Shown here piece after piece: positions 16,519 through 39,967 of a stretch of DNA of 64,000 bases. The stretch comes from a virus. Below the pieces are notes generated by a model that was not told where the DNA came from, ran no database searches, and saw nothing but the letters and a program-made list of their open reading frames with translations. The position numbers were made by a program, and so were the translations under genes. The stretch covers positions 1-64,000 of IMG/VR virus record IMGVR_UViG_3300030106_006724; one strand, 5' to 3'. Position 1 is the stretch's first letter; the number at the start of each line of letters is the position of its first letter.

Positions 16519-16529
16519 AAATACCTGGC
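16499..16529 (+). ncRNA. Candidate H-type pseudoknot in the queC leader
   Basis: AGGAT/ATCCT stem; loop GCC can pair with GGC 16527-16529 after an A-rich linker. Confidence 0.4.
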
Positions 16530-16550
16530 AAATTTAATTTTTATATTATT

Positions 16551-17402
16551 ATGGCAAAAAATGCTGTTTTATCATTAAGTGGAGGAATGGATTCTTCTAC
16601 GTTATTGTTACATTTACTAAGAGAAGGTTATAATGTAACTGCACTCTCTTTTGATTATGGTCAAAAGCATAGAGTTGAATTAGAAAGAGCTCAAGCTCTA
16701 GTTGATTACGTTAATAGTAACTGTAATCAAGTTGTAGGTACTGAACCTGATACAGGTGCAACTATTGCAAAATTAAAATATATGCCTGTTAATTATCAAG
16801 TGATTAAGATTGATGGAATTACTAATTTACTAAATTCTGCTTTAGTAGAAGGTGGAGATGATGTTCCGGAAGGTCATTATGAGCAAGATAATATGAAAGA
16901 AACTGTAGTTCCTAATAGGAATAAGATATTTTCTTCTTTAACGCAAGCTGTAGCTCTGTCTATTGCTAATAAAACTGGAGAAGATACCTATATATCATTA
17001 GGAATACATGCTGGAGATCATGCAGTTTACCCTGATTGTAGACAAGAATTTAGAGATGCTGATATGGAAGCGTTTCAAATAGGTAACTGGGATGCTGATA
17101 GAGTTAAATTCTATACTCCTTATCTAGAAATAGATAAATACGGAATACTTCAGGATGGACAAGAAAGTTGTTTAAGTTTAAATATTGATTTTAATGAGGT
17201 CTATAGTAGAACTAATACTTCTTATAAGCCTTACCCTTCTGGTAATAGCGATTATAAGTCTGCTAGTAGTGTGGAGCGTATCGAAGCTTTTATTAAACTG
17301 GGTATCGCAGATCCTGTTCAATACGAAGACGAGACTGGACCAGTGGATTACGAAGTAGCTAAAAATCATGTTGAAAAGGTTCTTGCTGAATATGCAGGAT
17401 AA
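16551..17402 (+). CDS. queC: 7-cyano-7-deazaguanine (preQ0) synthase
   Basis: SGGMDS, FDYGQKH, VPNRN, YPDCR; C-terminal Cys4 Zn site absent. Confidence 0.9.
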   Translation: MAKNAVLSLSGGMDSSTLLLHLLREGYNVTALSFDYGQKHRVELERAQALVDYVNSNCNQVVGTEPDTGATIAKLKYMPVNYQVIKIDGITNLLNSALVEGGDDVPEGHYEQDNMKETVVPNRNKIFSSLTQAVALSIANKTGEDTYISLGIHAGDHAVYPDCRQEFRDADMEAFQIGNWDADRVKFYTPYLEIDKYGILQDGQESCLSLNIDFNEVYSRTNTSYKPYPSGNSDYKSASSVERIEAFIKLGIADPVQYEDETGPVDYEVAKNHVEKVLAEYAG

Positions 17403-18439: not shown

Positions 18440-18440
18440 A

Positions 18441-20533: not shown

Positions 20534-20688
20534 TTAAAATAGATGTAAAAAAAGGTGATACTATTTTAGTAGGTCGCTTTAAAAATAAAAGAACTAAAGT
20601 AAAAACTATAGAGTATGATGAATTCGGTATGCCTATAATAAACGGTAGACCTGCTTGTACTTTTAGACTAGTAAAAAACCCAAGATAA
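20530..20688 (+). CDS. Small hypothetical protein (52 aa), not in ORF track
   Basis: MIKIDVKKGDTILVGRFKNKRTKV...GMPIINGR; fills the gap and overlaps both neighbours (ATGA/TAATG). Confidence 0.7.
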   Translation: MIKIDVKKGDTILVGRFKNKRTKVKTIEYDEFGMPIINGRPACTFRLVKNPR

Positions 20689-22346: not shown

Positions 22347-23107
22347 GATTAACAGGTACTGAAAATGTAAGAATAGTAGGAATACCTAAAAATGCAAGTC
22401 AATCTATTAAGAGAATAGGTTTAGATAACCCTAATATTTTTAACTGGGACTACGATATACCGAATGCTAATAGAGAAAAACATATACATTTTACTGAAAA
22501 AGAATTCTACAAAGAAGATTTAACAGTAATATTTCCTTTTAGAAACGAATGGGAAAGAGTAAAAAGCAATTTCCTTCAATTTTTTAGAGATCATTTAGAG
22601 TTAATAGGAGCATTTGATTCTCGAGATGAAGAAAAAAGTTATAAACGAGTTTTACATTTTATAAAAACCAGTCTTAAACGTCCTGAGCTTAATATAACTA
22701 ATAACCCTCGTAATCTAGTTATTAATACTGAATTAGATAATAGATTAAGTTATTTTAATGAAACAGTATTCAATTTTTTTATAGATAATATTTTTAATAA
22801 CAGTAACTGGAAAGGTATGAAGATGTACTTTGTTGATTTAGAAGCTTTACGTAAACAGCAATTTATAGATTGGCTTATAAAGTTAGATAGTAGATTTGAG
22901 GGTTGTACTGTTCCTGAAGCTAATTTAGCTTCTTCTAATTGGCATAAAACTTTAATAGTTAAAGCATTTAATGAAGTTCGAGATGAAAAACTATATTTAG
23001 ATTATACTAAATTATCTGACTGGAATACTAACGTTAAAGTTAATGTTGATAATAGTAGCAAGATTTGGAGATTGATAAAAAATACTAATTATTATAAAAG
23101 TATATAA
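22343..23107 (+). CDS. Sulfotransferase family 2-like protein
   Basis: IPKNASQSI 5'-PSB-like loop; RNEWERVKS 3'-PB-like motif. Confidence 0.55.
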   Translation: MRLTGTENVRIVGIPKNASQSIKRIGLDNPNIFNWDYDIPNANREKHIHFTEKEFYKEDLTVIFPFRNEWERVKSNFLQFFRDHLELIGAFDSRDEEKSYKRVLHFIKTSLKRPELNITNNPRNLVINTELDNRLSYFNETVFNFFIDNIFNNSNWKGMKMYFVDLEALRKQQFIDWLIKLDSRFEGCTVPEANLASSNWHKTLIVKAFNEVRDEKLYLDYTKLSDWNTNVKVNVDNSSKIWRLIKNTNYYKSI

Positions 23108-23223
23108 TGAAAGAAGATAAAACTAAAGAGCAAATAGAGAAAGAAAAGAAGCTAGAAGAAGAATTTCAAAAAAAATTGAAAGAGCTTAAAAAAAGAGATC
23201 CATTTATTTATAAAAATTTTTAG
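23107..23223 (+). CDS. Tiny charged protein (38 aa), not in ORF track
   Basis: MKEDKTKE...LKKRDPFIYKNF; TAATG coupling. Confidence 0.55.
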   Translation: MKEDKTKEQIEKEKKLEEEFQKKLKELKKRDPFIYKNF

Positions 23224-23227
23224 TAAT

Positions 23228-23260
23228 AGTTGGATAATAGAATATTTATACTTATATTAT
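23228..23260 (+). promoter_or_regulatory. Promoter motif class A heading the queD/queE operon
   Basis: TTGGAT 23230-23235, 17 nt, TATATT 23253-23258. Confidence 0.8.
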
Positions 23261-23269
23261 AGTATAATT

Positions 23270-23299
23270 AGTGTCGTAGCACCACTTTAAAAACACAAG
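23270..23299 (+). ncRNA. preQ1-I riboswitch-like aptamer
   Basis: AGTG-TCG-TAG-CA-C-CACT-TTAAAAACA-CAAG between promoter and ATG; matches class I preQ1 pseudoknot layout. Confidence 0.6.
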
Positions 23300-23300
23300 A

Positions 23301-23561
23301 ATGAAAAAAGACGTATTAAAGGTTATAGAAAAAGAACTCTACGATAGAGATCTAAGATACAATTCACACAAAGAAGTTAACCTCGAAAACTTACCGAATA
23401 CCACCGAATATCCGGATGCTAAATTACACCAGATAATATCATTTATAAAATCTGGTATTAGGATAGCAGCTTGTATTGCTGGTATTATGGGCTACATATG
23501 GATTGGTTTCTTAGGACTTGCTATTGCAGAGGTAGTTGGTATAATAGAAGAATTAGTTTAG
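23301..23561 (+). CDS. Small membrane protein
   Basis: C-terminal hydrophobic hairpin (SFIKSGIRI...AEVVGIIEELV). Confidence 0.65.
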   Translation: MKKDVLKVIEKELYDRDLRYNSHKEVNLENLPNTTEYPDAKLHQIISFIKSGIRIAACIAGIMGYIWIGFLGLAIAEVVGIIEELV

Positions 23562-23563
23562 TT

Positions 23564-24040
23564 ATGAATAAGAATAAATTTTTATCTACAAAAGTATTTG
23601 ATGGATTTAGTACAGTATTTCGTCAATGGAAAGCAGAAACTACTCACTGTAAATTTTTACACGGATATGGAGTATCTTTTAAGATTTGGTTCGAAGGGGA
23701 ATTAGATGAAAGAAACTGGGTATGGGATTTCGGTGGAATGAAAAGAGCCAAAGGAACTATTGATGGTAGATCTCCTAAAGAGTGGTTTGATTATATGTTT
23801 GATCATACATTTATAGTAGCAGAAGATGATCCATATTTAGAATCTTTTAATAAGATGGACGATGCTGAAGTTGCACAGGTTAGAGTAGTAGAAGCAACTG
23901 GAGCTGAAAAATTTGCTGAATTAGTTTATTATAAAGTTAATGAATTCATTACTTTAGAAACTGAAGGCAGAGTAAAAATAGCGAGAGTAGAATTTAGAGA
24001 GCACGGTAAAAATAGTGCTATATTTGAACCTAGTATATAA
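23564..24040 (+). CDS. queD: 6-carboxy-tetrahydropterin synthase (divergent)
   Basis: HCKFLHGY, DFGG, FDH, AE, E-x4-SA; start moved to ATG 23564. Confidence 0.85.
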   Translation: MNKNKFLSTKVFDGFSTVFRQWKAETTHCKFLHGYGVSFKIWFEGELDERNWVWDFGGMKRAKGTIDGRSPKEWFDYMFDHTFIVAEDDPYLESFNKMDDAEVAQVRVVEATGAEKFAELVYYKVNEFITLETEGRVKIARVEFREHGKNSAIFEPSI

Positions 24041-24042
24041 TA

Positions 24043-24819
24043 ATGTTAGGACGAGTTAAGAACTACGATAAAACCCTACCTATAGTTGAAGTGTATACTG
24101 CAGTTCAATCAGAAGGAAGTAGAGCTGGGTATCCTACAGTAGTTATTAGAACTACAGGATGTACTCATAGATGTTATTTTGGAGAAGGAGGATGGTGTGA
24201 TTCTTGGTATACTAGTATTCATGCTGAAAAAGGTAAATATACTTTTAATGATATTATTAAGATGTATGATGATAATCCTCAAATATCAGAAATGATGCTA
24301 ACAGGAGGTTCTCCTACTATGCATAAAAAACTAGTTAATGAATTAACACATTTTGCACATGAAAGAGATATTTTTATTACTATTGAGACTGAAGGTAGCC
24401 ATTTTCTTCCTACTGATTACCCTATTAACTTGCTTTCTATTAGTCCCAAGCTTAGTAATAGCGTCCCCGTACTTGGTGTACTTACTCCTCAAGGGGCAGT
24501 AACAGATCAAAAAATGATTGATAGACATAATAAATTTAGATTAAATTATGATGCTATCTCTAAACAAATTGAATATCATTCAGATTATCATATAAAACCT
24601 GTATGGGACGGTAAAGATCAAGATGCATTAAATGAAATAATGGACTTCATTGAAAAATTAAATATACCAAGGGATAAAGTATGGTTTATGCCTGCAGGTG
24701 ATAGTAGAGAATCTCTTTTTAAGTCATACCCAGTACTTTTTGATTGGGTTAGAGATAACGGTTATAGAATGACATGGAGACCTCATATTATAGCATTTGA
24801 AGATAAAAGAGAAGTTTAA
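24043..24819 (+). CDS. queE: 7-carboxy-7-deazaguanine synthase (radical SAM)
   Basis: QSEG, RTTGC, CX3CX7C, LTGG, ETEG, SPK. Confidence 0.88.
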   Translation: MLGRVKNYDKTLPIVEVYTAVQSEGSRAGYPTVVIRTTGCTHRCYFGEGGWCDSWYTSIHAEKGKYTFNDIIKMYDDNPQISEMMLTGGSPTMHKKLVNELTHFAHERDIFITIETEGSHFLPTDYPINLLSISPKLSNSVPVLGVLTPQGAVTDQKMIDRHNKFRLNYDAISKQIEYHSDYHIKPVWDGKDQDALNEIMDFIEKLNIPRDKVWFMPAGDSRESLFKSYPVLFDWVRDNGYRMTWRPHIIAFEDKREV

Positions 24820-25217
24820 TGGATAAAACTTTTATTACATGGAATCAGGTAAATAAATTACTCGACAAAATCCATGACCAAACTCAAGGAGGATTTGATT
24901 ATGTTTCTGGAATACCTAGAGGGGGATTAATTTTGGCAGTATTGTATTCGCATAGATTTGGAGTTGAATTTATGGAATACCCTAGTAATCATTATCATAA
25001 TTTATTAATTTTAGATGATATAGCTGATAGTGGTAAAACATTAAAAAAATGGACTGAAAAATTAAATATTCCTTACTTTGCTACTCTTCATTATAAGAGA
25101 AGTTCATGCGTAGAACCAGATTTTTACGGCAGAAAAATGATAAAAGAAGATAGATGGATAGTATATCCTTGGGAAAATAAAGACTCAAAAACTATACAAA
25201 ATTATTTGGAAAATTAA
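24819..25217 (+). CDS. Type I phosphoribosyltransferase (Gpt-like)
   Basis: GIPRGG, ILDDIADSGKT, WIVYPWE. Confidence 0.85.
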   Translation: MDKTFITWNQVNKLLDKIHDQTQGGFDYVSGIPRGGLILAVLYSHRFGVEFMEYPSNHYHNLLILDDIADSGKTLKKWTEKLNIPYFATLHYKRSSCVEPDFYGRKMIKEDRWIVYPWENKDSKTIQNYLEN

Positions 25218-25237
25218 ATAAAATTACTTATATTATA
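25205..25237 (+). promoter_or_regulatory. Promoter motif class A (near-leaderless folE2 mRNA)
   Basis: TTGGAA 25206-25211, 17 nt, TATATT 25229-25234; ATG at 25241. Confidence 0.7.
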
Positions 25238-25240
25238 GAT

Positions 25241-26260
25241 ATGAAAGACGATAAAGCAAAAGGTTACGAATGGATAGGAGATGCAGACGAAACTGTAGAA
25301 GCTCCAGCTAATGAACATTCAGTGAAATACTACGAACCTGATAGAGATTATGATTCTAAATATAATCCTACTAAAGATGATATTAAAACGTTTCCTGATC
25401 TTCAAAATGGTCCTTCTTCTTTGATTCAAGGGTCTCCTGTCGCTATACAGCAGGTAGGTATTCATAATTTTAGATTACCTTTAAAGTATAGCAAGAGAGG
25501 AGGTGGTGATATAGAATTAGAAACTAAAGTTACTGGTACGGTTTCTTTAGCGGCTCATAAAAAAGGTATTAATATGTCTCGTATCATGAGATCATTTTAT
25601 GAATATAAAGATGATTATGTATATGACAAGTTAGATGAAATATTATTAAAGTATAAAGAAAATTTAGAGACCTTTGATGCTAAAATAGGATTACATTTTT
25701 CTTACCCTATATTACAACCTTCATTAAGATCAGATAATGCAGGTTATCAATATTATAACTGTACTTTAGAAGGTAATATAGATGATAAAGGTAATTTTAG
25801 AAAGTTTTTACATTTCGATTTCGTTTATTCATCTGCTTGTCCTTGTTCTTATGAATTAGCAGAGCATGCTAGAAAATATAGAAATAAAGCAACAGTATCT
25901 CATTCTCAAAGATCTGTAGCAAGAATATCTATTGAATTTGACGATATAGTATGGATTGAAGATTTACAAGAGATGTGTGCTAATGCTCTACAGACTGAAA
26001 CTCAAGTAGTTGTTAAAAGAGAAGATGAGATGGCATTTGCTGAATTAAATGGTTCTTATCTTAAGTTTGTAGAAGATGCTGCTAGATTACTATATGAGCA
26101 GTTAATAGAGGATAAAAGAGTAAAAGATTTTAGAGTTATTTGTTCTCATCAAGAGTCATTACATTCTCATGATGCTGTTTCAGTAATTACAGCTCCTGAT
26201 AGTGAATTTTGTCAAGATGTTCCTCATGAGTTATGGTCAAGTTTAATTCATATATCATAA
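25241..26260 (+). CDS. folE2: GTP cyclohydrolase IB
   Basis: PDLQ, KGINMSR, SACPCS, HSQRS, KREDE, FVED, ESLHSH. Confidence 0.92.
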   Translation: MKDDKAKGYEWIGDADETVEAPANEHSVKYYEPDRDYDSKYNPTKDDIKTFPDLQNGPSSLIQGSPVAIQQVGIHNFRLPLKYSKRGGGDIELETKVTGTVSLAAHKKGINMSRIMRSFYEYKDDYVYDKLDEILLKYKENLETFDAKIGLHFSYPILQPSLRSDNAGYQYYNCTLEGNIDDKGNFRKFLHFDFVYSSACPCSYELAEHARKYRNKATVSHSQRSVARISIEFDDIVWIEDLQEMCANALQTETQVVVKREDEMAFAELNGSYLKFVEDAARLLYEQLIEDKRVKDFRVICSHQESLHSHDAVSVITAPDSEFCQDVPHELWSSLIHIS

Positions 26261-26796
26261 TGTCTAAAATTGAAGAATTAAAAAAATTATGTGGTGAGTT
26301 AAGAACTTTAACTGAACAGACTTTTGATGAGGTTAAGAGTGATAAATATTCTAAATATGAAGATGCTTTAAGATCTTTTATTGATAAGTATGAAATAGAT
26401 CATAGACCATGGGGTAAGTACGAAGTAATGTACAGTAGTCCTTTTGTAAAAGTAAAGAAGATAATAGTTAAACCTCGAGGTATATTATCTTATCAGTATC
26501 ATGATCAAAGAACTGAGGATTGGATAATTACTAGAGGAAGCGCTAAAATAGTACTTGATGATGAAGAGGTATGGAGAACTGAAGGAGAAAGAATTAGAAT
26601 AAAAGTAGGACAGAAGCATAGAGTTAGTAATCCTAGTTTTGATAATATATTAGAATTTATAGAAGTGCAAACAGGAACTTACTTTGGAGAAGATGATATA
26701 ATCAGAATAGAAGATGATTATGGTAGATTAGAAGACGAGCATTTAAGAGATCATGATATAAAAGGAGGAATAATTAATAGTTATGAAAAAAAATAA
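26260..26796 (+). CDS. Cupin, mannose-6-phosphate isomerase type II C-terminal-like
   Basis: RPWGKY, LSYQYH, HR, EVQTG.YFGEDDI; start moved to ATG 26260. Confidence 0.85.
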   Translation: MSKIEELKKLCGELRTLTEQTFDEVKSDKYSKYEDALRSFIDKYEIDHRPWGKYEVMYSSPFVKVKKIIVKPRGILSYQYHDQRTEDWIITRGSAKIVLDDEEVWRTEGERIRIKVGQKHRVSNPSFDNILEFIEVQTGTYFGEDDIIRIEDDYGRLEDEHLRDHDIKGGIINSYEKK

Positions 26797-26962
26797 AAGT
26801 TTAGCAGAATATATAGTTGAAATAGATGGTAAGCAATATGTACCTTACAGTAAAGCTGTAGAGGCGATAATGCAATCCGTAAGTAGAGAAGTAAGAGAAG
26901 CTATGGATGAAGTAGCTTCCGGAATGAAGGATGTAAATAGTTTATTAGAAGATAATGATTAA
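26783..26962 (+). CDS. Small hypothetical protein (59 aa), not in ORF track
   Basis: MKKNKSLAEYIVEIDGKQYVPY...; fills gap. Confidence 0.6.
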   Translation: MKKNKSLAEYIVEIDGKQYVPYSKAVEAIMQSVSREVREAMDEVASGMKDVNSLLEDND

Positions 26963-27770
26963 AATAGCGCACGAATCTCCTAAGAGTATTTTTGATGATG
27001 TACAGAAAGTAACTGACTACGATTACGCTCTAGTTCATTTATTAGAAGAAGACGAACAGTATCTTAAGCATTTTCAACAAGCTATTAAAAAAGGAAGAGA
27101 AGTAATTTTAGATAATTCAATATTTGAATTAGAAGAAGCTTTTGAAGCTGAAAAATTTGCATACTGGGTTGAAAAATTAAGACCTGAATGGTATATAGTA
27201 CCTGATGCTTTAGAAAACTCTCTTCTTACCATGGCTCAGATGGAAAAATGGAACTCTCAGTATAAAAACCTTCCCGGTAAAAAAATTGGAGTAGTACAAG
27301 GTCAAACTTATCAATCTATTATAGACTGTTATAAGTATATGGATTATGTAGCTGATGTTGATATGATAGCTATATCATTTGATTACTCTTATTATACCGA
27401 ATCAGTACCTCATGCTAATAAGTACGTTAGTTGGATGTTAGGTAGAATAAAATTATTAGGAGACTTACTTAAGCATGGTATAATAAATAAAAATAAACCT
27501 CATCACCTTTTAGGATGTGGATTACCTCAAGAATTTAGCTTTTATAAACATTCAGATTACGATTGGTTATACTCTTTAGATACTTCTAATCCAGTAGTTC
27601 ACGGTATCAAAGGTATTAAATATGGTGATGATGGTTTGTGGAGCAAAGAATCTCAAAAACTTTATGAATTAATTAATTATGAAGTTGAAGATACTAATAT
27701 AATAATGAATAATATACAAAAATTTAGATGGTTAACTAATGGGAGACACAAAGTGGATATCGTTCTTTAG
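26955..27770 (+). CDS. dpdA: TGT-fold guanine transglycosylase, DpdA (DpdA3-like)
   Basis: VILDNS, VPD, GVVQG, HLLG, SLDTS motifs; located within que cluster. Confidence 0.75.
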   Translation: MIKIAHESPKSIFDDVQKVTDYDYALVHLLEEDEQYLKHFQQAIKKGREVILDNSIFELEEAFEAEKFAYWVEKLRPEWYIVPDALENSLLTMAQMEKWNSQYKNLPGKKIGVVQGQTYQSIIDCYKYMDYVADVDMIAISFDYSYYTESVPHANKYVSWMLGRIKLLGDLLKHGIINKNKPHHLLGCGLPQEFSFYKHSDYDWLYSLDTSNPVVHGIKGIKYGDDGLWSKESQKLYELINYEVEDTNIIMNNIQKFRWLTNGRHKVDIVL

Positions 27771-28302
27771 TCAAACAGGATCTGAAATAGCTGATATATC
27801 TGAAGCATTAGGACAAGCTCCTGATGTTATTATTACTAATGATAGACCCGATCATCTTAGAACTATAGATGAAAGAATAGAAAAGCAAGGTTATTTTACC
27901 TGGGCTAATAAACCTTCAGAAGAAGATTATATTAGTTTATTAGAAGCTTATCCTGATGCAATAGTTACTTTACATGGTTGGTTAAGAATAGTACCTCCGT
28001 ATGTCTGTGAACGTTCTAAAATTTATAACGGTCATCCCGGTCTGATAACTAAATATCCAGAACTAAAAGGTAAAGATCCTCAAGAGAAAGCTTTTAAATT
28101 ACAACACGAAGTTATGGGGTGTGTACTTCATGAGGTTTCTCCTGGAGTAGATGAAGGGAAAATACTAATGGAAGAAAGATTTAACTCTCATGGGTTGGAT
28201 CTTAACGGAGTTTTTCGTACCTTAAGAGATAGAAGTTTATACATGTGGATTAAATTTTTAAGAATAGCTTTAATTCATCAAAATTATTATAATGATAACT
28301 AG
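27739..28302 (+). CDS. dpdN: PurN-like formyltransferase (DpdN-like preQ1 formyltransferase)
   Basis: FSQTGS, LHGWLRI, NGHPG, H-E-V..GVDEG; overlaps dpdA. Confidence 0.75.
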   Translation: MGDTKWISFFSQTGSEIADISEALGQAPDVIITNDRPDHLRTIDERIEKQGYFTWANKPSEEDYISLLEAYPDAIVTLHGWLRIVPPYVCERSKIYNGHPGLITKYPELKGKDPQEKAFKLQHEVMGCVLHEVSPGVDEGKILMEERFNSHGLDLNGVFRTLRDRSLYMWIKFLRIALIHQNYYNDN

Positions 28303-28813
28303 AATAGCTTTAGTAGGAGCAAGTAGTACAGGAAAAACTACTGTATTTGAATTACTTAAAAATAAATTACCTAAGTATGAATTCGTTAATGAATCGACTC
28401 GTACTATAGGTAACTATGGTTTTCCTATAAATGAACAAGGTACTGATGCTACTCAATTAGCTATTAGTAGCTTTCATTTAGAAGCTTTACTTCAACCTAA
28501 TAATTTAGTATTAGATAGATGCTATATGGATGTAGTAGTTTATTCTAAATTTATGGAAAATTTAAGAGCTAGAACTTATAATTATATTGAAGATACTTGG
28601 AATAGAATAAAAAAAGAGTATACTCATTATATTTATTTTCCTATTGAATTTGATTCAGTTGATGATGGAGTAAGGAGTATAGATGAGACTTGGAGAAAAG
28701 ATATAGATGATGAATTCCAAGCTGTATTAGAAGGAGTACGAAAACCTTATTTAACTGTTACTGGATCCCCGATGCAGAGAATTGAACAAATATTAAAATT
28801 TATAAATGAGTAA
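28292..28813 (+). CDS. P-loop nucleotide kinase-like ATPase (NadR/AAA_28 type)
   Basis: GASSTGKTT, LDR, DDGVR. Confidence 0.75.
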   Translation: MITRIALVGASSTGKTTVFELLKNKLPKYEFVNESTRTIGNYGFPINEQGTDATQLAISSFHLEALLQPNNLVLDRCYMDVVVYSKFMENLRARTYNYIEDTWNRIKKEYTHYIYFPIEFDSVDDGVRSIDETWRKDIDDEFQAVLEGVRKPYLTVTGSPMQRIEQILKFINE

Positions 28814-29318
28814 ACAATTAGAACTAGACTTTGGCGGTCCTGAAAAATATGTACCTTTCGTTTCAGAGGTAGAAGAATTTAATGCCACGTTTGGCAAACC
28901 TAATAATTATGAACCAACTATTCCAGAGAAAAAAGAATGGCAATTCGTCTATGACTTTATTCTCGAAGAACTTGAAGAATATAGAGAAGCTTGCGAAAGA
29001 GGAGACATCGTCGAAGTTTTGGATGCTCTTTGCGATATTGCTTACGTTTCCATTGGGAACGGTACTATGTTACATGGCCTTAAGGATAAGATATGGCCTG
29101 CTTATCAAGAAGTACAAGCGTCTAATATGTCAAAAGCTTGTACTACTGAAGAAGAAGCAAAAGAAACTGTCGCCCTCAGAACTAAAGAACAGGGTGAAGA
29201 GTGTTATTATGAAAAAGTAGGTGACTATTATATAGTATACCGAAAAAGAGATAAAAAGGTTATGAAATCTATAAATTATTTCAGACCAGATTTAAGTAAA
29301 TTTTTAAAAAATGTATAA
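28806..29318 (+). CDS. MazG-like/PRA-PH NTP pyrophosphohydrolase
   Basis: EELEEY, DALCD, VQASNMSK, KVMKS..YFRPD. Confidence 0.85.
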   Translation: MSKQLELDFGGPEKYVPFVSEVEEFNATFGKPNNYEPTIPEKKEWQFVYDFILEELEEYREACERGDIVEVLDALCDIAYVSIGNGTMLHGLKDKIWPAYQEVQASNMSKACTTEEEAKETVALRTKEQGEECYYEKVGDYYIVYRKRDKKVMKSINYFRPDLSKFLKNV

Positions 29319-29676
29319 ATACGGAGCAAAATTAGTTAGAGTAGTCGATGGAGATACAGCTGATGTAATGATCGACTTAGGTTTTGATACTTGGGTTAAG
29401 GCTAGACTTAGATTTAAAGGAGTTGATACCTGGGAAAAAAGAACTAGAAATAAAGAAGAAAAAATAAAAGGTTTAGCTGCTACAGCTTTTACTGCAACTT
29501 ATTTAGAAAAGAATAAAGGTAATTTTACTATTCAATCATACGGTAAAGGTAAGTACGGTAGAGTTTTAGCAGAGATCTTTATAGATGGAGAAGAAAAATC
29601 TCTTAATCAGTTATTAATAGAAAATGGTCATGCGTATATTTACGAAGGCGGTAAAAAACAAGTATTTAATGGATAA
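29311..29676 (+). CDS. Thermonuclease (SNase) family nuclease
   Basis: VVDGDT, GVDT.E, KYGRVLA, LIENGHA. Confidence 0.88.
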   Translation: MYKYGAKLVRVVDGDTADVMIDLGFDTWVKARLRFKGVDTWEKRTRNKEEKIKGLAATAFTATYLEKNKGNFTIQSYGKGKYGRVLAEIFIDGEEKSLNQLLIENGHAYIYEGGKKQVFNG

Positions 29677-30568
29677 TCAAAGTAAAGTAAAAGAAATAGC
29701 AGGTAAACATTTAGGTAAAGTAGGTGGAGCCGGCTATAGCGATCAGTATAATAGAGACTTATTAGTAAAAGTTCCTAGAAAGTTAAATAGAGAAACTTAT
29801 AATCTTTCTGGAAATGAATTTGTAGGAGTTGATACATGGAATGCATATGAAGTATCTGCTATTACTACTAAGGGTCAACCTGTAGCGGGTATGTTAAAAA
29901 TAGTATGCCCTTCTAACTCTGAATTTCACGTAGAATCTAAGTCTATAAAGTTATATTTAAATTCTCTTAATATGACTAAGATAGGAGATACAGCTAAAGA
30001 CTGTATTAAAGGTATAGAAGCTACAGTTAAAAGAGATTTAGATGAATTATTAGAAACTAATACGACTGTATCTTTTTATGCTGATGATTCAGAAACTACT
30101 CCTCTATCCTTTAAAGATTATGAAGATGTAGCCGAAATTGCTAATTTAGATGAAATAGATTTTACCTCTTTTAAATCTGATGCTTCTCAGTTAGAAGCTC
30201 AAGATAATGATGAAGTAGAAGAATTAAGGTATAGATCTAACTTATTAAGATCGAACTGTAGAGTAACTAATCAACCTGATTGGGGTGATGTATTTATCTA
30301 TCTTAGAGGTAAAAAATTACCTACTGCAGCTTCATTAGCAAAGTATATAGTAAGCCATAGAACTGTAAGTCATTTCCATGAAGAGATATGTGAAATGGTA
30401 TTTGCTCATTTATGTGAAGCATTTCAACCAGACCAATTAATGGTTGCATGTTTATATACTAGAAGAGGAGGTTTAGATATTAATCCTATTAGAGCTACTC
30501 ATTCTAGTTTAATACCAGAATTTTTTACTAATCCTGATTTTACTATTCAAAAAACTTTAAGGCAGTAA
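29669..30568 (+). CDS. queF: NADPH-dependent preQ0 reductase, bimodular
   Basis: WNAYEVS, VESKSIKLYLNS, CRVTNQPD, FHEE, YTRRGG; start moved to ATG 29669. Confidence 0.92.
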   Translation: MDNQSKVKEIAGKHLGKVGGAGYSDQYNRDLLVKVPRKLNRETYNLSGNEFVGVDTWNAYEVSAITTKGQPVAGMLKIVCPSNSEFHVESKSIKLYLNSLNMTKIGDTAKDCIKGIEATVKRDLDELLETNTTVSFYADDSETTPLSFKDYEDVAEIANLDEIDFTSFKSDASQLEAQDNDEVEELRYRSNLLRSNCRVTNQPDWGDVFIYLRGKKLPTAASLAKYIVSHRTVSHFHEEICEMVFAHLCEAFQPDQLMVACLYTRRGGLDINPIRATHSSLIPEFFTNPDFTIQKTLRQ

Positions 30569-31173
30569 TGAATAAACTATGGTCCTTTGGTGATTCTTGG
30601 ACATATGGTCAAGGAGTTAATTCTAATGAAACCTTCACACAGCTTATAGCTGATTCCCTTAATTTAGAACCTTTAAATTTAGGTATACCAGGAGCTGCTA
30701 ATAGTTACATATATAATAAACTTATTCATTACCGTATTAATTTTAAACCTGGTGATTTAGTTTTAATAAACTGGAGTAGTCCTCATAGAGATGAATATAC
30801 AGATAGATATGATTATAAACGTTCTGATAATAAATTAAACTTTAATATAAAATTCTATCCTGAATATTTAAATAATACATATAATAAATTAAAAGAGTTT
30901 AATTTTATTATGACTCAAGCTTTTAATCCTATTTTTGGTTATGACTATAGTTTAAATACTAACTATCACGGTAAAAATTTTATAGAGTGGGGCAAACCTA
31001 ATAATACTTTAGTTGATATTATAAGTGATAATTGGTGTAAAGAAAATAGAAATAATTTATTTATGTCAAATTTTCCTGTTAAAAAAGATTTTTCGATGTT
31101 TGTTAAAGACGATAATCATCCATCACCTAAAGGGCATAAATTAATAGCAGATAAACTTTTAGAATATTTATAA
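30568..31173 (+). CDS. SGNH/GDSL-like protein
   Basis: FGDSWTYG, NLGIPGAAN, DDNHPS..GH. Confidence 0.65.
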   Translation: MNKLWSFGDSWTYGQGVNSNETFTQLIADSLNLEPLNLGIPGAANSYIYNKLIHYRINFKPGDLVLINWSSPHRDEYTDRYDYKRSDNKLNFNIKFYPEYLNNTYNKLKEFNFIMTQAFNPIFGYDYSLNTNYHGKNFIEWGKPNNTLVDIISDNWCKENRNNLFMSNFPVKKDFSMFVKDDNHPSPKGHKLIADKLLEYL

Positions 31174-31175
31174 TT

Positions 31176-31433
31176 ATGACAAAAGAAACAGTAGAATCTA
31201 TAAAACTAATCGCAGAAAGAGTCCCCCCTGGAGATAACTGGGAATTAGTAATTGATAAAGAGAACGTAATAGAAGGTTTAGTTCAGACTCTTACTCAATA
31301 TATGCGTAAAACTAAATTTAAAGGTAACTATAGATTAGAGCCTTTACAAGGTAAATTATTCGCTATAGAAGAAGAGCAAGTAAATATTGTTGAACCTGAA
31401 CCTGAAAAGTTTGACCTTTACGGAGAATTTTAG
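31176..31433 (+). CDS. Hypothetical protein
   Basis: 85 aa ORF. Confidence 0.6.
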   Translation: MTKETVESIKLIAERVPPGDNWELVIDKENVIEGLVQTLTQYMRKTKFKGNYRLEPLQGKLFAIEEEQVNIVEPEPEKFDLYGEF

Positions 31434-31439
31434 AAAATT

Positions 31440-31472
31440 AGTTGGAATTCTGAGATATTCTTCTTATATTAG
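31440..31472 (+). promoter_or_regulatory. Promoter motif class A
   Basis: TTGGAA 31442-31447, 17 nt, TATATT 31465-31470. Confidence 0.8.
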
Positions 31473-31489
31473 GTTAATAAAACGGTTAT

Positions 31490-31921
31490 ATGGATAAAGT
31501 TTATCATTGGTTAGAAGAAGGTTTTATTCAAGCTGGTACTTTCTTTATTTCCGATAAATATACTCAAGGTGTTGATGTAGAATTTATAGTAGATAGAAAA
31601 GATTGGTATATACCTGGAGTATATATTTTTGCTGATAAACAAGGTAGTGTACTTAAAATAGGTGAAAGTGGTAAGCTTGCCGATAGAATGTTTAATCAAT
31701 ATAAGTGTATTGATAACGTTACTAATAATCGAATTAGAGAAAGCTTAAAAGCTGATTATAAAAAAGTTAATTTTTTCTTTTTTCCGGTTCCTCAAGCAAC
31801 TGAAACTATAATGAATAGAGAGATTACAGGAGCTTTTCATAAGCAGTTAGAAGAACAATTATTAAAAGAATACTTTAAAAATACTGGTAAACTTCCTACT
31901 TGGAACGAAATGAGAAAATAA
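31490..31921 (+). CDS. GIY-YIG-like nuclease
   Basis: PGVYIF...LKIGES...DR...E...P.WN. Confidence 0.6.
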   Translation: MDKVYHWLEEGFIQAGTFFISDKYTQGVDVEFIVDRKDWYIPGVYIFADKQGSVLKIGESGKLADRMFNQYKCIDNVTNNRIRESLKADYKKVNFFFFPVPQATETIMNREITGAFHKQLEEQLLKEYFKNTGKLPTWNEMRK

Positions 31922-31924
31922 TAT

Positions 31925-34252
31925 ATGCAATTAGAGAAAAAATACTATACCGTTCAAGATAATGAAACTCTTGAACTCTTATATAAACATATTGAATCGT
32001 CTGATATACTAGCTGTCGATACTGAAACTTCTGGTCTTAATCCTCGTAAAGATAAAATAGTTGGTTGGTCAGTATCTGGCGACGAAGGTGTAGGGTTTTA
32101 CCTACCTACCTTAGTTTGGAACTTTGATAAAGATGAATTAGAACTTCAAACTATTAACGGTAAATCTACTGAAACTATATCTAAAAACTTTATGAGAATG
32201 CTAAAAGGTAAAAAATTAGTATTTCATAATGCTTCGTTTGACTGTCAGTTTATTAAAAATTATTTTGGAGTAGATCTTATTGAAGATATATGGGTTGATA
32301 CTGGTCTATTAGTTCATACTGTATATGAAGAAGGTGCGTTTGGTTATGGTAATCCTTTTGGTTTGAAACCTATTGCTATAATGAATCAGAAAGAATTAGG
32401 TTTAGATGTAGAAAAAGCTGCTAACGAAGAGCAATTAGAACTTAAAGGCTCTATAAAGAAAAATGGCGGTCAGACTACTAAGTTACTATTTGAGATTTAT
32501 AAAGCTGATTTAGATATTCTATCTAAGTATGCTTCTGCCGATACCGATTTAACTTTACGTATATGTAACTTATATCTAAAGAAATTAAAAGAAGAAGGGC
32601 TAGAGAAGTTTTTCTTTGAAGAAGAAGTTATGCCGATATATAGAGAAGTAACTGTTCCTATGGAATCTGCAGGTGTTGATTTAGATGTAGAACTAATAGA
32701 AAAGACTCATAAAGAGATTAGCGAAGACTTAATTAAAAATAAAGAGATAGTAATGAAATCTTTATTAGCTATTTCTGAAGTTAAAGAATGGGTATTAGGT
32801 ACTGCATTAAGTAACTACCCTGTATCTCATAAAGGTAACTGGGCTCAGAATTTGGTTACTCGTTATTCTTTACCTTTACCTAAGTCTGAAAAAACTGGTA
32901 AGTATTCTCTTACTAGTAAAAATATAGAAGAGTTAGAGGAATCTAATGTTAAGCAGTTTTTACTTACTGGTGATACTGATCTTATAGAAGATGTAGAAAA
33001 AGCTCGTATATCGATGGCTATGTGGAAAGAATCTAATGATGGAGAGTATATTAATATTCAATCTAAGAAGCATTTAGGTGAAATAGTATTTAAGTATATG
33101 GGTATTAAACCTAAAGTAGCTGGTGCTAATACTAAATCTGGTAGAGCTAAGTTTGATATGGATATGGTAGAAGAACTAGCGAAAGAATATCCTTGGGCTG
33201 AAAACTTAAGAATATATAATAAACTACTTAAGATTAAATCTACTTATGTAGATAGGTTTAGAGATAGAAATGAAGATGGTAAATATTATTTTTACTTTAA
33301 GCAGAATGGTACTGTATCTGGTCGATATGGATCTGATGCTCAACAGTTACCTAAACCTTTAGAAGAAGGTGAAGATGCTCCTATTATTATGAAGTATGTT
33401 AATATAGTAAGGGCTTTCTTAGTAGCCGGTAAAGGTAGAAAAGTTATTGATGCTGATTACGAATCATTAGAACCTCATTGCTTTGCCTCAGTATCTGGTG
33501 ATAAAAAACTTCAAGAAATATTCGATAATGGTTGGGACTTTTATTCTTATGTCGCTATTCAAACTGAAAAGCTTGATGGAGTATCTGCTGATAAAAAAGC
33601 TGATAACTACCTTAAAAAATTAGATCCTGTTAAAAGAAATAAAGCTAAAGCTTATTCTTTAGGAGTTGCATATGGAATGGAAGCTTATGCTCTTAAAATG
33701 ACTTTAGGAGTAGATCAAAAGACTGCTGAAGGATTAATAAAGGGTTACTTAGATGGTTTTCCTGGTTTAAGAGATTGGAGAGAAAACTCTCGTAGGCAAG
33801 TAAAAGATCATGGTTTTATTAAAAATTATGTTGGTCGTATAAGGCACGTACCTAAGGTAAAAAAGATTTATGAAAAGTTTGGTGAAAAGATGATGGATTG
33901 GAGGTTTAGAAAAGACTTAGAGAATCAAGGATATAATAGAGATGATATAGTTAAGGTTTATAGAGATTACCGTAATGGATTAAACTTCTGCCTTAACTTT
34001 CAATTACAATCTTTAGCTGCAGCGGTAGTAAATAGAGCTGCTGTAGTTATTAATAGGACTGCTAGAGAAAAAGGCTTCGATGCTTTCGTTCAAGCACAAG
34101 TACATGACCAGTTAATTATAAACGTGAAAGACGATCAAGCTGAAGCCTTTGCTCCTTTAGTTCAAGAGATTATGGAAAATACTACTAAGTTACCTGGAGT
34201 AACTTTAAAAGCTCCTCCTGAAATAGCTAATAACTGGAGAGACGGACATTAA
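31925..34252 (+). CDS. polA: Family A DNA polymerase with 3'-5' exonuclease
   Basis: DTETSGL, HNASFD, YASAD; DADYESLE, KAKAYSLGVAYG, QVHDQ. Confidence 0.93.
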   Translation: MQLEKKYYTVQDNETLELLYKHIESSDILAVDTETSGLNPRKDKIVGWSVSGDEGVGFYLPTLVWNFDKDELELQTINGKSTETISKNFMRMLKGKKLVFHNASFDCQFIKNYFGVDLIEDIWVDTGLLVHTVYEEGAFGYGNPFGLKPIAIMNQKELGLDVEKAANEEQLELKGSIKKNGGQTTKLLFEIYKADLDILSKYASADTDLTLRICNLYLKKLKEEGLEKFFFEEEVMPIYREVTVPMESAGVDLDVELIEKTHKEISEDLIKNKEIVMKSLLAISEVKEWVLGTALSNYPVSHKGNWAQNLVTRYSLPLPKSEKTGKYSLTSKNIEELEESNVKQFLLTGDTDLIEDVEKARISMAMWKESNDGEYINIQSKKHLGEIVFKYMGIKPKVAGANTKSGRAKFDMDMVEELAKEYPWAENLRIYNKLLKIKSTYVDRFRDRNEDGKYYFYFKQNGTVSGRYGSDAQQLPKPLEEGEDAPIIMKYVNIVRAFLVAGKGRKVIDADYESLEPHCFASVSGDKKLQEIFDNGWDFYSYVAIQTEKLDGVSADKKADNYLKKLDPVKRNKAKAYSLGVAYGMEAYALKMTLGVDQKTAEGLIKGYLDGFPGLRDWRENSRRQVKDHGFIKNYVGRIRHVPKVKKIYEKFGEKMMDWRFRKDLENQGYNRDDIVKVYRDYRNGLNFCLNFQLQSLAAAVVNRAAVVINRTAREKGFDAFVQAQVHDQLIINVKDDQAEAFAPLVQEIMENTTKLPGVTLKAPPEIANNWRDGH

Positions 34253-34262
34253 AATTAATTAT

Positions 34263-35213
34263 ATGATTAGAACAGCAGAATGTATAACACCTAAGCATCC
34301 AGATAAAATCTGTGATAGAATATCAGATGCTATTTTAGATGCATGTTTAAAGCAGGATCCTAATACAAGAGCTGCTATAGAAACTATGGGAGGTCACGGA
34401 ATTATAACCGTAACCGGCGAACTAACTACAACAGCCTTTGTTGATATTCCGGAAGTAGTAAAATCAGTATACGGTAAAGATATAGGAGTACAAACCAATA
34501 TAGTAATGCAATCACCAGAAATAGCTCAAGGAGTAGATACTGGCGGAGCAGGTGATCAAGGTATTATGATAGGATATGCTTGTACTGAAAATGATGAAAT
34601 GGTACCTCTAGAGTATTATTTTGCAAGAAAGTTATGTGAATCTATCTATATAAATCATCCTTATGATGGAAAAACTCAAGTTACTATATTAGAAGATGAT
34701 TCATTAAATGTAGTAGCATCGTTTCAAAATACTTCTACTGAAGACTTAATACATCATATAAAAGATTTCTTTGCAGAAACAAATTATACCATCAATTCTC
34801 TACATTGCAACCCAGCTGGAGAATGGAATTTAGGAGGCTTTGATGCTGATACAGGATTAACAGGAAGAAAATTAGCTGTAGATAACTATGGTCCTAGAAT
34901 ACCTTTAGGTGGAGGAGCTTTTAGCGGTAAGGATAGTTCTAAAGTAGATAGATCAGCAGCATATATGGCTAGAAGAATAGCTACAGACTATATAGGAAAA
35001 TATAAAGCTAGTGAAGTTTATGTAACTCTAGCTTATGCTATAGGACATGATAAACCTTTACAAGCTACAGCTTTAGTAGATGGAAAAGAAATTTATATAA
35101 ACGACTATGATTTATCTCCAAAAGGAATAGTAGAGTTTTTAGGTTTAAAACAACCTATTTTCTACGAAACTTCTAAATGGGGGCATATGGGAAAAAACTT
35201 TTCATGGAATTAG
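34263..35213 (+). CDS. metK: S-adenosylmethionine synthetase
   Basis: HPDKICD, GAGDQG, GLTGRK, GGGAFSGKD.SKVDRS. Confidence 0.95.
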   Translation: MIRTAECITPKHPDKICDRISDAILDACLKQDPNTRAAIETMGGHGIITVTGELTTTAFVDIPEVVKSVYGKDIGVQTNIVMQSPEIAQGVDTGGAGDQGIMIGYACTENDEMVPLEYYFARKLCESIYINHPYDGKTQVTILEDDSLNVVASFQNTSTEDLIHHIKDFFAETNYTINSLHCNPAGEWNLGGFDADTGLTGRKLAVDNYGPRIPLGGGAFSGKDSSKVDRSAAYMARRIATDYIGKYKASEVYVTLAYAIGHDKPLQATALVDGKEIYINDYDLSPKGIVEFLGLKQPIFYETSKWGHMGKNFSWN

Positions 35214-38837: not shown

Positions 38838-38953
38838 TGAAAAAGATAGTAGCTACAATGAAGGAAATATATGATGCGATGAAACCTAACGTTTATCGTA
38901 ATAGAAAGAAATATACTCGTAAAACAAAACATAAGAATAAAAATGAAAATTAA
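38837..38953 (+). CDS. Tiny basic protein (38 aa), ArfA-like tail, not in ORF track
   Basis: MKKIVATMKEIYDAMKPNVYRNRKKYTRKTKHKNKNEN; TAATG coupling. Confidence 0.55.
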   Translation: MKKIVATMKEIYDAMKPNVYRNRKKYTRKTKHKNKNEN

Positions 38954-39425
38954 TTTATTAGATTATATACATACTATAAAAGACTTTCCTAAAGAAGGGA
39001 TTTACTTTAAAGATATACAACCTCTATTAGCTGATACTGTAGCATTTAAACAAGCTATAACTGAAATGGGTAGATTAGTTGAACAACCTGATTATTGGGT
39101 TGGTATAGAATCTAGAGGTTTTATCTTTGCTTCTGCTTTAGCCGCTACTTTCGGAGGAGGGTTAAGATTGATAAGAAAGGAAGGTAAATTACCTCCTGAT
39201 TTTTTAGTTAAAGAATCTTACGACTTAGAATACGGCAGTGATACTATAGAAATGAAACGAGGTAATGGATCAGTAATATTAGTTGATGATGTAATCGCTA
39301 CCGGAGGCACTATGAATGCATCGGAAAACATCGTATCTAATGCAGGTTATGATTTATTAGATAAATTAGTATTAATAGATATTGGAATAGCTGAGAACAA
39401 CGTTAAATCTTTAATTAAATATTAA
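38943..39425 (+). CDS. apt: Adenine phosphoribosyltransferase
   Basis: DFPKEGI.FKDI, ESRGF, RKEGKLP, LEYG, VDDVIATGGT. Confidence 0.93.
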   Translation: MKINLLDYIHTIKDFPKEGIYFKDIQPLLADTVAFKQAITEMGRLVEQPDYWVGIESRGFIFASALAATFGGGLRLIRKEGKLPPDFLVKESYDLEYGSDTIEMKRGNGSVILVDDVIATGGTMNASENIVSNAGYDLLDKLVLIDIGIAENNVKSLIKY

Positions 39426-39967
39426 TGGAAAATAAAATACTTTTACTTTCTGCTACTGACTACGAACATGACTGTAAAGACTTATTTGGTATACCGATTC
39501 ATATCACAGGTATAGGTAAAATTAATGCAGCAGTAAATAGTACTAGATTGATACAAAAATACGATCCTGATATAGTTATCAACTTTGGTTCTTGTGGCAA
39601 TTTAAAAGATTATCAAATAGGAGAAGTATTAGAAGTAGGAACGGTAATAAACGATTTAGATACTCTAGGATTTTATAATCAAATGTCTAATATATTAAAT
39701 AAAGATTTAAATATAAAATGTTTAACTACTGATCATATGTACGATAGCTCTCATGATGATTATGTAGAGTCATATATGGAAAAAATAGATGAATGTGATA
39801 TAGTTGATATGGAACTATTTAGTATAGCAGAAAGTTGTAAAATTGCTAAAAAATTCTTATATTCATATAAATGGGTTAGCGACGATGGGAGTAATGACGA
39901 ATGGTTAGAAAACGCTAAAGCCGGTTTTAATAATTTTAAACAAATATTTAAATCTAAACATCTATGA
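39425..39967 (+). CDS. MTA/SAH nucleosidase-like (PNP_UDP_1 family)
   Basis: TGIGKINAA, INFGSCG, VDME, KWVSD. Confidence 0.85.
   Translation: MENKILLLSATDYEHDCKDLFGIPIHITGIGKINAAVNSTRLIQKYDPDIVINFGSCGNLKDYQIGEVLEVGTVINDLDTLGFYNQMSNILNKDLNIKCLTTDHMYDSSHDDYVESYMEKIDECDIVDMELFSIAESCKIAKKFLYSYKWVSDDGSNDEWLENAKAGFNNFKQIFKSKHL

Follow-up and report, generated by a model that had tools for sequence, protein, structure and literature searches.

A DpdA3/DpdN guanine-replacement module in an uncultured immuto-like phage and a possible nucleotide-level route to DNA without guanine

The first 64 kb of an 89.2-kb viral contig (IMG/VR record IMGVR_UViG_3300030106_006724, positions 1 to 64,000; hereafter the window) carry, at positions 23564-34252, a gene cluster that is identified by protein homology as the 7-(formylamino)methyl-7-deazaguanine (fdPreQ1) guanine-replacement module of an uncultured phage resembling Flavobacterium phage immuto_2-6A (hereafter immuto). 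The locus is predicted to be a further member of the described DpdA3/DpdN system, in which DpdA3 is a base-exchange enzyme of the TGT/DpdA superfamily and DpdN is a PurN-like formyltransferase. It is another copy of a system that is abundant in aquatic viromes, and it is the mechanism that matters. The current statement of the field is that all 7-deazaguanine DNA marks are inserted after replication, whereas the gene neighbourhoods of DpdA3 argue for action on the nucleotide pool. In our judgement it is an even call whether these phages use a route like that of phage T4, in which the base is exchanged ahead of DNA replication, at the level of the free deoxyguanosine nucleotide (or nucleoside). 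We also hold, with somewhat less than even confidence, that DpdA3 would be the first TGT-superfamily enzyme to act on a free deoxyguanosine nucleotide and not on DNA, which would make the system a purine counterpart of the T4 hydroxymethylcytosine pathway.

If this is correct, fully G-replaced genomes, whether they contain fdPreQ1, dADG or dDG, would acquire their modified base before replication, which departs from the published view. Furthermore, a new reaction type would be added to the TGT superfamily, it would be explained how a phage writes a genome without any G, and a compact enzyme set for making 7-deaza-dGTP analogues would be at hand. A pre-replicative pathway of this kind had been proposed in an initial annotation of the window. 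The role that it gave to the kinase and the nucleotide hydrolase is strengthened here by genetic linkage and by the swapping of protein folds, and its arguments from the phosphoribosyltransferase (PRTase), the staphylococcal-nuclease-like protein (SNase), the polymerase and the lack of a Zn-binding extension lose their force.

Four overlapping genes are central to the argument:

26955..27770, + strand: DpdA3 (TGT/DpdA-superfamily base-exchange enzyme), 271 amino acids (aa); phrog_19058, without a Pfam match
27739..28302, + strand: DpdN (PurN-like formyltransferase); PF00551 Formyl_trans_N, 53% identical to immuto DpdN
28292..28813, + strand: AAA_28 P-loop kinase; PF13521 (E 8.4e-19), 67% identical to its immuto homologue and 28% to CP220 gp057
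28806..29318, + strand: MazG-like (PRA-PH type) NTP pyrophosphohydrolase; PF01503 (E 1.9e-10; 41.4 bits, cut-off 21.3), phrog_671, 80% identical to immuto

These genes belong to a co-directional, partly overlapping operon on the + strand, which in this window (G+C ~30%; contig completeness by CheckV ~54%) carries almost all long open reading frames (ORFs). The gene order is QueD, QueE, PRTase, FolE2, cupin, a 59-aa ORF, DpdA3, DpdN, AAA_28 kinase, MazG-like, SNase and QueF, after which a GDSL-like ORF and two small ORFs lead to a family A DNA polymerase (PolA). By their ORF coordinates, dpdA and dpdN overlap by 32 nucleotides (nt), dpdN and the kinase gene by 11 nt, the kinase gene and mazG by 8 nt, and mazG and the SNase gene by 8 nt. 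An identical gene order is seen again in dozens of IMG/VR contigs, which indicates that the arrangement is not due to chance. All genes named in the initial annotation were confirmed, with their coordinates and + orientation. Its description of the cluster holds for the genes and the overlaps, and requires correction in that the cyclohydrolase is FolE2 (type IB) and not FolE, and in that QueC is encoded outside the range.

Placement of the locus in the DpdA3/DpdN fdPreQ1 type is based on its identities to immuto proteins and on profile and hhalign evidence for DpdA. The DpdA protein is 76.5% identical to immuto DpdA over 264 aa and 41% identical to CP220 gp056, and it matches phiST gp042 at E 1e-9. 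The immuto cluster comprises QueD, QueE, a PRTase, FolE, an NTP pyrophosphohydrolase, DpdA, a formyltransferase, a ‘thymidylate kinase’, QueF, PolA, GroES and GroEL, and the window has this gene set in a related order, with identities of 38-80%. The two clusters differ in that the window encodes FolE2 instead of FolE, has mazG after the kinase gene and not before dpdA, and additionally carries a cupin, SNase, GDSL-like ORF and MetK. The passages of Cui 2023 (PMC10516641) used here describe immuto DNA as lacking dG, with fdPreQ1 in its place.

DpdN follows DpdA in 50 of the 54 DpdA3 clusters that have at least 3 kb of downstream sequence, and DpdA3-DpdN fusion proteins are known (P0166, P0209 (447 aa)). 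Such fusions show that exchange and formylation are coupled, and they are silent on which substrate is used. Together with the overlapping dpdA-dpdN-kinase-mazG frames, they suggest a tight coupling that we count in favour of exchange at the nucleotide level. In alignments of DpdN with PurN structures, the N-x-H-P segment and the subsequent Asp, which we take to be the catalytic residues of PurN formyltransferases, coincide.

In the T4-like route, preQ1 would be made as a free base. The MazG-like enzyme would convert dGTP to dGMP, thus both removing the competitor and supplying the substrate, and DpdA3 would then swap guanine for preQ1 on dGMP (or on the nucleoside). DpdN would formylate the exchanged mononucleotide, much as its model PurN works on a 5'-phosphorylated sugar-amine. 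Next, the AAA_28 kinase would re-phosphorylate the modified nucleotide, a host NDP kinase would complete the triphosphate, and the phage PolA would incorporate it to yield DNA without G. The expelled guanine would be turned by the PRTase into GMP and then become GTP for FolE2, with the PRTase making no preQ1 nucleotide. The gene identities, their order, the linkage statistics and the displacement of folds reported here are observed, and from these we infer every substrate assignment.

Phage T4 produces hydroxymethyl-dCTP by means of a dCTPase (gp56), a dCMP hydroxymethylase (gp42) and a dNMP kinase (gp1). The S-2L dZ pathway, as presented in PMC8342488, involves PurZ, DatZ and MazZ. The logic of the T4 and S-2L pathways is like that proposed for the window, in that a canonical dNTP is destroyed and a monophosphate is modified, re-phosphorylated and polymerised. 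However, the modifying enzymes are not homologous, and that of the window would be a TGT-type exchanger acting on a purine. We know of no superfamily member for which TGT-type base exchange on a free purine mononucleotide has been shown. A modified dGTP was proposed earlier for Campylobacter phages, as cited in Hutinet 2019 (PMC6884629). In the main-text passages of PMC10516641, PMC6884629 and PMC10484667, supplements aside, there were 0 matches to kinase and phosphoribosyl terms, and our literature search found no paper that proposes a nucleotide-level DpdA3 or discusses the kinase or PRTase, which the supplements of Cui 2023 may list.

The immuto homologue of the kinase is annotated as a dTMP kinase; the window protein scores 21.9 bits against the dTMP kinase family TIGR00041, below the curated cut-off of 83.25. 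The kinase weakly matches NadR and the phage nicotinamide-nucleotide adenylyltransferase family, and a comparison with solved structures yielded nothing below E 0.1. The MazG-like protein gave marginal matches only to PDB sequences. In a tblastn search of the phage collection it matched immuto, two huge uncultured phages and Tenacibaculum phages, and no cyanophage record was returned.

The association of these two genes with DpdA3 was evaluated in a set of 150 IMG/VR DpdA3 loci, which form 75 clusters at 90% DpdA identity, and in a control set of 80 Queuovirinae-like DpdA1 loci, which form 47 clusters at 90% DpdA identity. An extra IMG/VR scan from a distant DpdA3 representative recovered mainly identical contigs. 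Each tally excludes loci whose flanks fall below the stated limit (3 kb or 8 kb):

Kinase homologue: at least 3 kb, DpdA3 40/43 and DpdA1 0/39; at least 8 kb, DpdA3 31/31 and DpdA1 0/29
NTP-pyrophosphatase homologue: at least 3 kb, DpdA3 29/43 and DpdA1 0/39; at least 8 kb, DpdA3 28/31 and DpdA1 0/29
Kinase and NTP pyrophosphatase together: at least 3 kb, DpdA3 28/43 and DpdA1 0/39; at least 8 kb, DpdA3 28/31 and DpdA1 0/29
Walker-A ORF of 130-350 aa: at least 3 kb, DpdA3 40/43 and DpdA1 1/39; at least 8 kb, DpdA3 31/31 and DpdA1 2/29

Moreover, of the 54 DpdA3 clusters with at least 3 kb downstream, 48 encode the AAA_28 kinase and all 54 encode QueF within 3 kb. The co-occurrence that the initial annotation had put forward for checking is therefore found for the kinase and the NTP pyrophosphatase, both of which are linked to DpdA3 and not to DpdA1. 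In four DpdA1-type phage records examined individually (PaMx25, JenP2, phiSM and Vibrio 033B), the 5-6 kb around DpdA contain neither a kinase nor a hydrolase nor a Walker-A ORF. A Pfam scan of ten of the 101 recurrent unlabelled ORF families of the DpdA1 controls revealed no kinase and no NTP hydrolase; these ten families represent QueD, QueE, Gat-QueC, a Vut_1 transporter, YdjM, a nucleoside 2-deoxyribosyltransferase, an HNH endonuclease and unknowns. As separate observations on the control loci, the nucleoside 2-deoxyribosyltransferase (PF05014) adjoins DpdA1-type clusters at L208:7201-7596 and in three similar control loci, and some control loci carry a gene of Vut_1, a putative vitamin uptake transporter family.

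A stronger argument than these counts, albeit a qualitative one, is that the slots beside DpdA3 are filled by four hydrolase folds and three kinase families. In phages CP220 and phiST, whose end-products are dADG and dDG, an NTP phosphohydrolase and a P-loop kinase are encoded beside DpdA3 as in the window, and the PRTase is encoded elsewhere in the genome. Both phages differ from the window in lacking QueF and DpdN and in having other end-products. The DpdA3 of CP220 (gp056) lies between an HD-domain/AAA_33 fusion protein (gp055), whose HD domain represents the hydrolase, and an AAA_28 kinase (gp057). The order in phiST is FolE, a PF03819 MazG (gp039), gp040, an AAA_18 ATPase (gp041), DpdA3 (gp042) and PolIII alpha, and thus MazG family, kinase family and polymerase type all differ from those of the window. 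Three phiST-like IMG/VR loci (L159-L161) have FolE, an Hpt-type PRTase, a dCTP-deaminase/dUTPase-fold protein, a gp040-like protein and DpdA3. In L159, the locus of the three that was compared with Pfam, the gp040-like protein is fused to an AAA_18 domain and lies directly 5' of DpdA3, and in L160 and L161 two more ORFs separate the gp040-like protein from DpdA3. The hydrolase slot is therefore occupied by a PRA-PH MazG (window, immuto), a PF03819 MazG (phiST), an HD domain (CP220) or a dCTP-deaminase/dUTPase fold (L159-L161, L071), and the kinase slot by AAA_28 (window, immuto, CP220 gp057), AAA_18 (phiST gp041) or an AAA_18 fusion with the gp040-like protein (L159). Such swapping in fixed slots is expected if dNTP hydrolysis and re-phosphorylation belong to the DpdA3 pathway, and is not expected if DpdA3 acts on finished DNA. 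Both the linkage and the fold displacement are what a nucleotide-level pathway predicts.

The published model explains the same genes by a different route. It holds that DpdA3 is a highly efficient DNA transglycosylase that converts G to preQ1 in finished or nascent phage DNA and that DpdN formylates the free base or the base in DNA. The kinase, MazG, PRTase and SNase would then belong to the usual nucleotide supply of a large phage, with their genes in the replication region by coincidence. We regard this model as the main and a strong competitor, although less probable than exchange on nucleotides. It gives no account of a kinase and a hydrolase that stand beside DpdA3 with changing folds in all deep lineages examined but one kinase-less sub-clade, nor of the absence of both genes from 39/39 DpdA1 loci, and it leaves the overlapping reading frames unexplained. 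To our knowledge, there is no precedent for a slow TGT-type exchange that replaces every one of the tens of thousands of G in a genome, which we also count against it. Finally, the passages of Cui 2023 (PMC10516641) state that complete replacement occurs only in DpdA3 phages, with DpdA1, DpdA2 and DpdA4 reaching no more than 30%, and that attempts to obtain DpdA3 activity in an E. coli plasmid DNA assay failed, which speaks against the model. Both statements, and the ADG nucleoside reported from CP220-infected cells in the same paper, are also counted in favour of exchange on nucleotides.

Several points weigh against exchange on nucleotides, and some of these favour the published model directly. 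DpdA3 is a member of the DpdA/TGT superfamily, and it is homologous to enzymes that act on polymers; its Asp motifs align with those of DpdA1 and its sole PDB match is a DNA-guanine transglycosylase. The authors who defined DpdA3 proposed a post-replicative origin for all 7-deazaguanine DNA marks, according to the same passages of Cui 2023 (PMC10516641). Members of the AAA_28 kinase family are also encoded in 89 Streptomyces phage records, again a point for the published model; in Jay2Jay, the Streptomyces phage examined, the kinase gene is surrounded by genes of general DNA metabolism, and its neighbourhood contains no deazaguanine genes. Also in line with the published model, 6/54 loci are without a kinase within 3 kb. 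These loci make up one sub-clade, ordered DpdA, DpdN, QueF, QueC, most members of which carry glutamine-amidotransferase-like and dUTPase-fold ORFs after QueC, and two of the six show neither in the short stretch available. The NTP pyrophosphatase was found in just 29 of the 43 DpdA3 loci, and the tblastn search of the phage collection with the MazG-like protein did not match the Campylobacter and Cellulophaga DpdA3 phages. There are also limits to the comparison itself. Kinase and MazG genes are frequent in the replication modules of large phages and the DpdA1 controls are mostly ~60-kb siphoviruses, such that genome size confounds the contrast. The kinase and hydrolase queries were drawn from DpdA3 phages, which leaves the Walker-A count as the only unbiased one, and each comparison set represents few clades, meaning that the counts are not independent events. 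As a side observation, a peptide deformylase is encoded near the cluster in five kinase-less loci (L066, L073, L087, L089 and L146; PF01327, E 2.5e-39 for L066).

The lack of a Zn motif and the charge of the DpdA3 protein do not discriminate between DNA and nucleotides as substrate. A profile of 58 DpdA relatives compared with the PDB gave one weak match, to DNA-guanine transglycosylase 7ui4 (E 0.033), and hhalign aligned DpdA3 with four DpdA1-type phage proteins at a probability of 87.7% (E 3.4e-6). In this alignment, the LDNS and DTS Asp motifs of DpdA3 correspond to their DpdA1 counterparts (D63 and D206), and across 58 sequences D53 is invariant and D209 nearly so. An Atlas search with DpdA3 returned DpdA-like viral clusters only, and the search for DpdA relatives yielded 3780 proteins at a threshold of E <=0.001 and, with clustering at 50% identity, 1392 representatives. 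The initial annotation had emphasised that the 271-aa DpdA has no Cys-rich extension for binding Zn and nucleic acid. The protein indeed has 2 Cys and no CxCxxC motif, which would be part of the Zn-binding Cys/His cluster that we take to be a defining feature of the TGT/DpdA family. However, the four compared DpdA1-type phage proteins (240-317 aa) likewise have no CxCxxC, and we therefore rejected the proposal that an enzyme without this extension is not a nucleic-acid enzyme. One DpdA1-type group acts within a strict sequence motif, and hence on DNA, as described in passages of PMC10484667. Charge as a proxy for DNA binding was dropped as well, with a median isoelectric point of 5.48 for 133 DpdA3 representatives versus 5.46 for PaMx25 DpdA.

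More generally, DpdA1-type Queuovirinae (such as PaMx25, JenP2 and iggy) resemble the window in having preQ0 genes, a polymerase next to DpdA and often a PRTase domain, and their DpdA is likewise short and devoid of a Zn motif; they differ from it in the absence of a kinase or NTP pyrophosphatase beside DpdA (0/39). In the passages of PMC10484667, the iggy modification is described as partial and motif-specific. Three metagenomic DpdA3 relatives have additional parts fused to them. The C-terminal part of P0186 gave a faint GNAT match (E 0.047, below the cut-off), and a fusion to an acyltransferase would point to further N-acyl preQ1 marks. P0124 is extended at its N-terminus by 317 aa that belong to no family, and P0126 ends in a NUMOD3 homing-endonuclease tail.

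An enzyme that might generate a modified nucleotide without DpdA3 is the PRTase encoded immediately after queE:

24819..25217, + strand: small XGPRT-like purine PRTase, 132 aa; PF00156 (E 4.4e-10), 38% identical to the immuto PRTase

ToyH and TubE, of deazapurine antibiotic pathways, react a 7-deazaguanine-type base with phosphoribosyl pyrophosphate (PRPP). By analogy, the phage PRTase might join preQ1 or an earlier 7-deazaguanine to PRPP, and the product would be phosphorylated, reduced by ribonucleotide reductase and incorporated, leaving DpdA3 to mop up. The presence of a PRTase in all three isolated DpdA3 phage groups and of ribonucleotide reductase genes in the window (7603-10305) fits this route, which we nevertheless regard as very improbable. 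The PRTase is missing from 10/31 full-flank DpdA3 loci, it occurs in partially modified DpdA1 phages, often fused to FolE, it can be exchanged for an Hpt-type enzyme, and a universal DpdA3 would be left without a role.

The distribution of the PRTase differs from that of the kinase and hydrolase. It was found in 24/43 DpdA3 and 11/39 DpdA1 loci with at least 3 kb of flank, and in 21/31 and 10/29 with at least 8 kb. Homologues were detected by tblastn in 56 phage records, including immuto, phiST-like and CP220-like phages, and the matches in Pseudomonas, Stenotrophomonas, Xanthomonas, Vibrio and Brevundimonas phages fall within the GTP cyclohydrolase gene or next to it. In PaMx25 (L094:5893-6783) and Vibrio phage 033B (L165:4008-4928), one ORF encodes both the PRT domain and FolE. 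We note that some records label such PRT-FolE ORFs of Queuovirinae simply as GTP cyclohydrolase. In five DpdA3 loci and in L159-L161, a full-length Hpt-like PRTase takes the place of the small one. The PRTase is thus not specific to DpdA3.

The PRTase fits better with guanine salvage (expelled guanine to GMP to GTP) than with the synthesis of a preQ1 nucleotide, because of its kinship to 6-oxopurine PRTases, its linkage to FolE and its presence even where DpdA acts on DNA. Its nearest solved relatives are 6-oxopurine PRTases, namely archaeal 1vdm, Sulfolobus GpT-1 and GpT-2, and E. coli XGPRT, and its PRPP loop is intact and aligns to those of 1vdm and XGPRT. Between the two blocks that align, it lacks ~20 aa relative to 1vdm, and it scores 40.1 bits against the NCBIfam XGPRT model, far under the cut-off of 138. 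A parallel for the salvage reading is provided by three further genes of the window:

34263..35213, + strand: S-adenosylmethionine (SAM) synthetase (MetK-like); PF02773, PF00438 and PF02772, follows PolA
38943..39425, + strand: adenine phosphoribosyltransferase (APRT); PF00156, APRT structures at E 3e-25, just after GroEL
39425..39967, + strand: MTA/SAH-nucleosidase-like protein; PF01048, MTA/SAH nucleosidase structures at E 1.4e-8, directly follows APRT

MetK would renew SAM for the radical-SAM enzyme QueE, and APRT together with the nucleosidase would recover the adenine by-product. The three resemble a salvage set for SAM and for the 5'-deoxyadenosine by-products of QueE.

The cluster also encodes a nuclease:

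29311..29676, + strand: SNase, accessory; PF00565, phrog_452 (E 4.5e-40)

In one variant of nucleotide-pool action, host DNA would be degraded, DpdA3 would exchange the base on free deoxyguanosine, and the AAA_28 protein would be a nucleoside kinase; the 3'-nucleotides that SNase-type nucleases yield would be dephosphorylated afterwards. NadR, which the window kinase weakly matches, has a ribosylnicotinamide kinase domain that belongs to the AAA_28 family, and a nuclease is encoded in 23/31 full-flank loci, comprising SNase in 7/31 and Endonuclease_NS in 16/31. Passages of Cui 2023 (PMC10516641) moreover report the ADG nucleoside in the cytoplasm of CP220-infected cells. We nevertheless find this variant improbable. 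Endonuclease_NS (PF01223), which is not homologous to SNase, sits between kinase and queF in the loci inspected, the position of SNase in the window, and its proteins begin, as judged by eye, with a hydrophobic N-terminus like that of a signal peptide, which suggests export and not cytoplasmic recycling of host DNA. In addition, no 5'- or 3'-nucleotidase was identified within the cluster, and the dGMP produced by MazG would already be a direct substrate. Recycling of host DNA by the SNase, as the initial annotation had it, is therefore not upheld: the SNase is an accessory and non-discriminating gene, and the enzymes that substitute for it start signal-like. The PF01223 arrangement is exemplified by L008:12525-13136 and was observed in 16 further related loci.

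The polymerase likewise does not set the DpdA3 pathway apart:

31925..34252, + strand: family A DNA polymerase with 3'-5' exonuclease (PolA); PF00476 (E 6.4e-58) and PF01612, 69% identical to immuto PolA

The initial annotation took a dedicated polymerase to be part of the pathway. However, a polymerase also adjoins DpdA in the four DpdA1-type phage records examined (PaMx25, JenP2, phiSM, Vibrio 033B), and its presence is thus non-discriminating. A second, partial match to family A polymerases occurs in a 441-aa ORF at 1390-2715 (PF00476, E 1.6e-10), which adjoins gp32-like, RecA-like, 5'-3' exonuclease and DnaB-like genes.

The genes for the supply of preQ1 are all present in the contig, from GTP cyclohydrolase I through QueD, QueE and QueC to QueF, with FolE2 replacing FolE:

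23564..24040, + strand: QueD (CPH4 synthase); PTPS PF01242 (E 6e-13), 72% identical to immuto QueD
24043..24819, + strand: QueE (CDG synthase, radical SAM); Radical_SAM match, 80% identical to immuto QueE and 73% to phiST QueE
25241..26260, + strand: GTP cyclohydrolase FolE2 (type IB); PF02649 (E 6.5e-70), NF010200 273 bits, cut-off 215
16551..17402, + strand: QueC (preQ0 synthase); PF06508 (E 9.3e-38), found by genome search
29624..30568, + strand: QueF, bimodular preQ0 reductase; PF14819 and PF14489, TIGR03138 (E 5.2e-71), 60% identical to immuto

By their family assignments, these five proteins are predicted to make the free base preQ1 from GTP.

The remaining ORFs of the operon include three, namely the cupin, the 59-aa ORF and the GDSL-like ORF, that are additions to the gene list of the initial annotation:

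23301..23561, + strand: 86-aa hydrophobic ORF at the operon head; homologue upstream of queD in 42/86 related loci, without a Pfam match
26233..26796, + strand: cupin (mannose-6-P isomerase C-terminal-like); PF01050 (E 5.6e-29), in 8/31 full-flank loci
26783..26962, + strand: 59-aa ORF directly 5' of dpdA, without a family match
30568-31173, + strand: GDSL-like ORF

An ORF of 59-86 aa occupies the position before dpdA in most related loci. An Rfam scan of positions 16000-35000 revealed no preQ1 riboswitch family at E <=1, and its only result near the operon head was a sub-threshold CRISPR-DR25 match at 23158-23182 that is probably due to chance. The segment at 23220-23300, 5' of the 86-aa ORF, resembles a promoter and contains a short hairpin that is followed by an A-rich tail.

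QueC is embedded in a block of genes for sugar or group transfer at 10486-22346 that also encodes a GlcNAc-type glycosyltransferase, an HtrL_YibB-like protein, an APS-kinase-like protein and a 2OG-Fe(II) oxygenase-like ORF. Two carbamoyltransferases of the NodU/CmcH type are found in the same block (11763-13346 and 20688-22346), the second of which lies upstream of the que operon in 14/86 related loci. Further downstream in the window, two neighbouring DUF2589 genes are present at 45694-46871.

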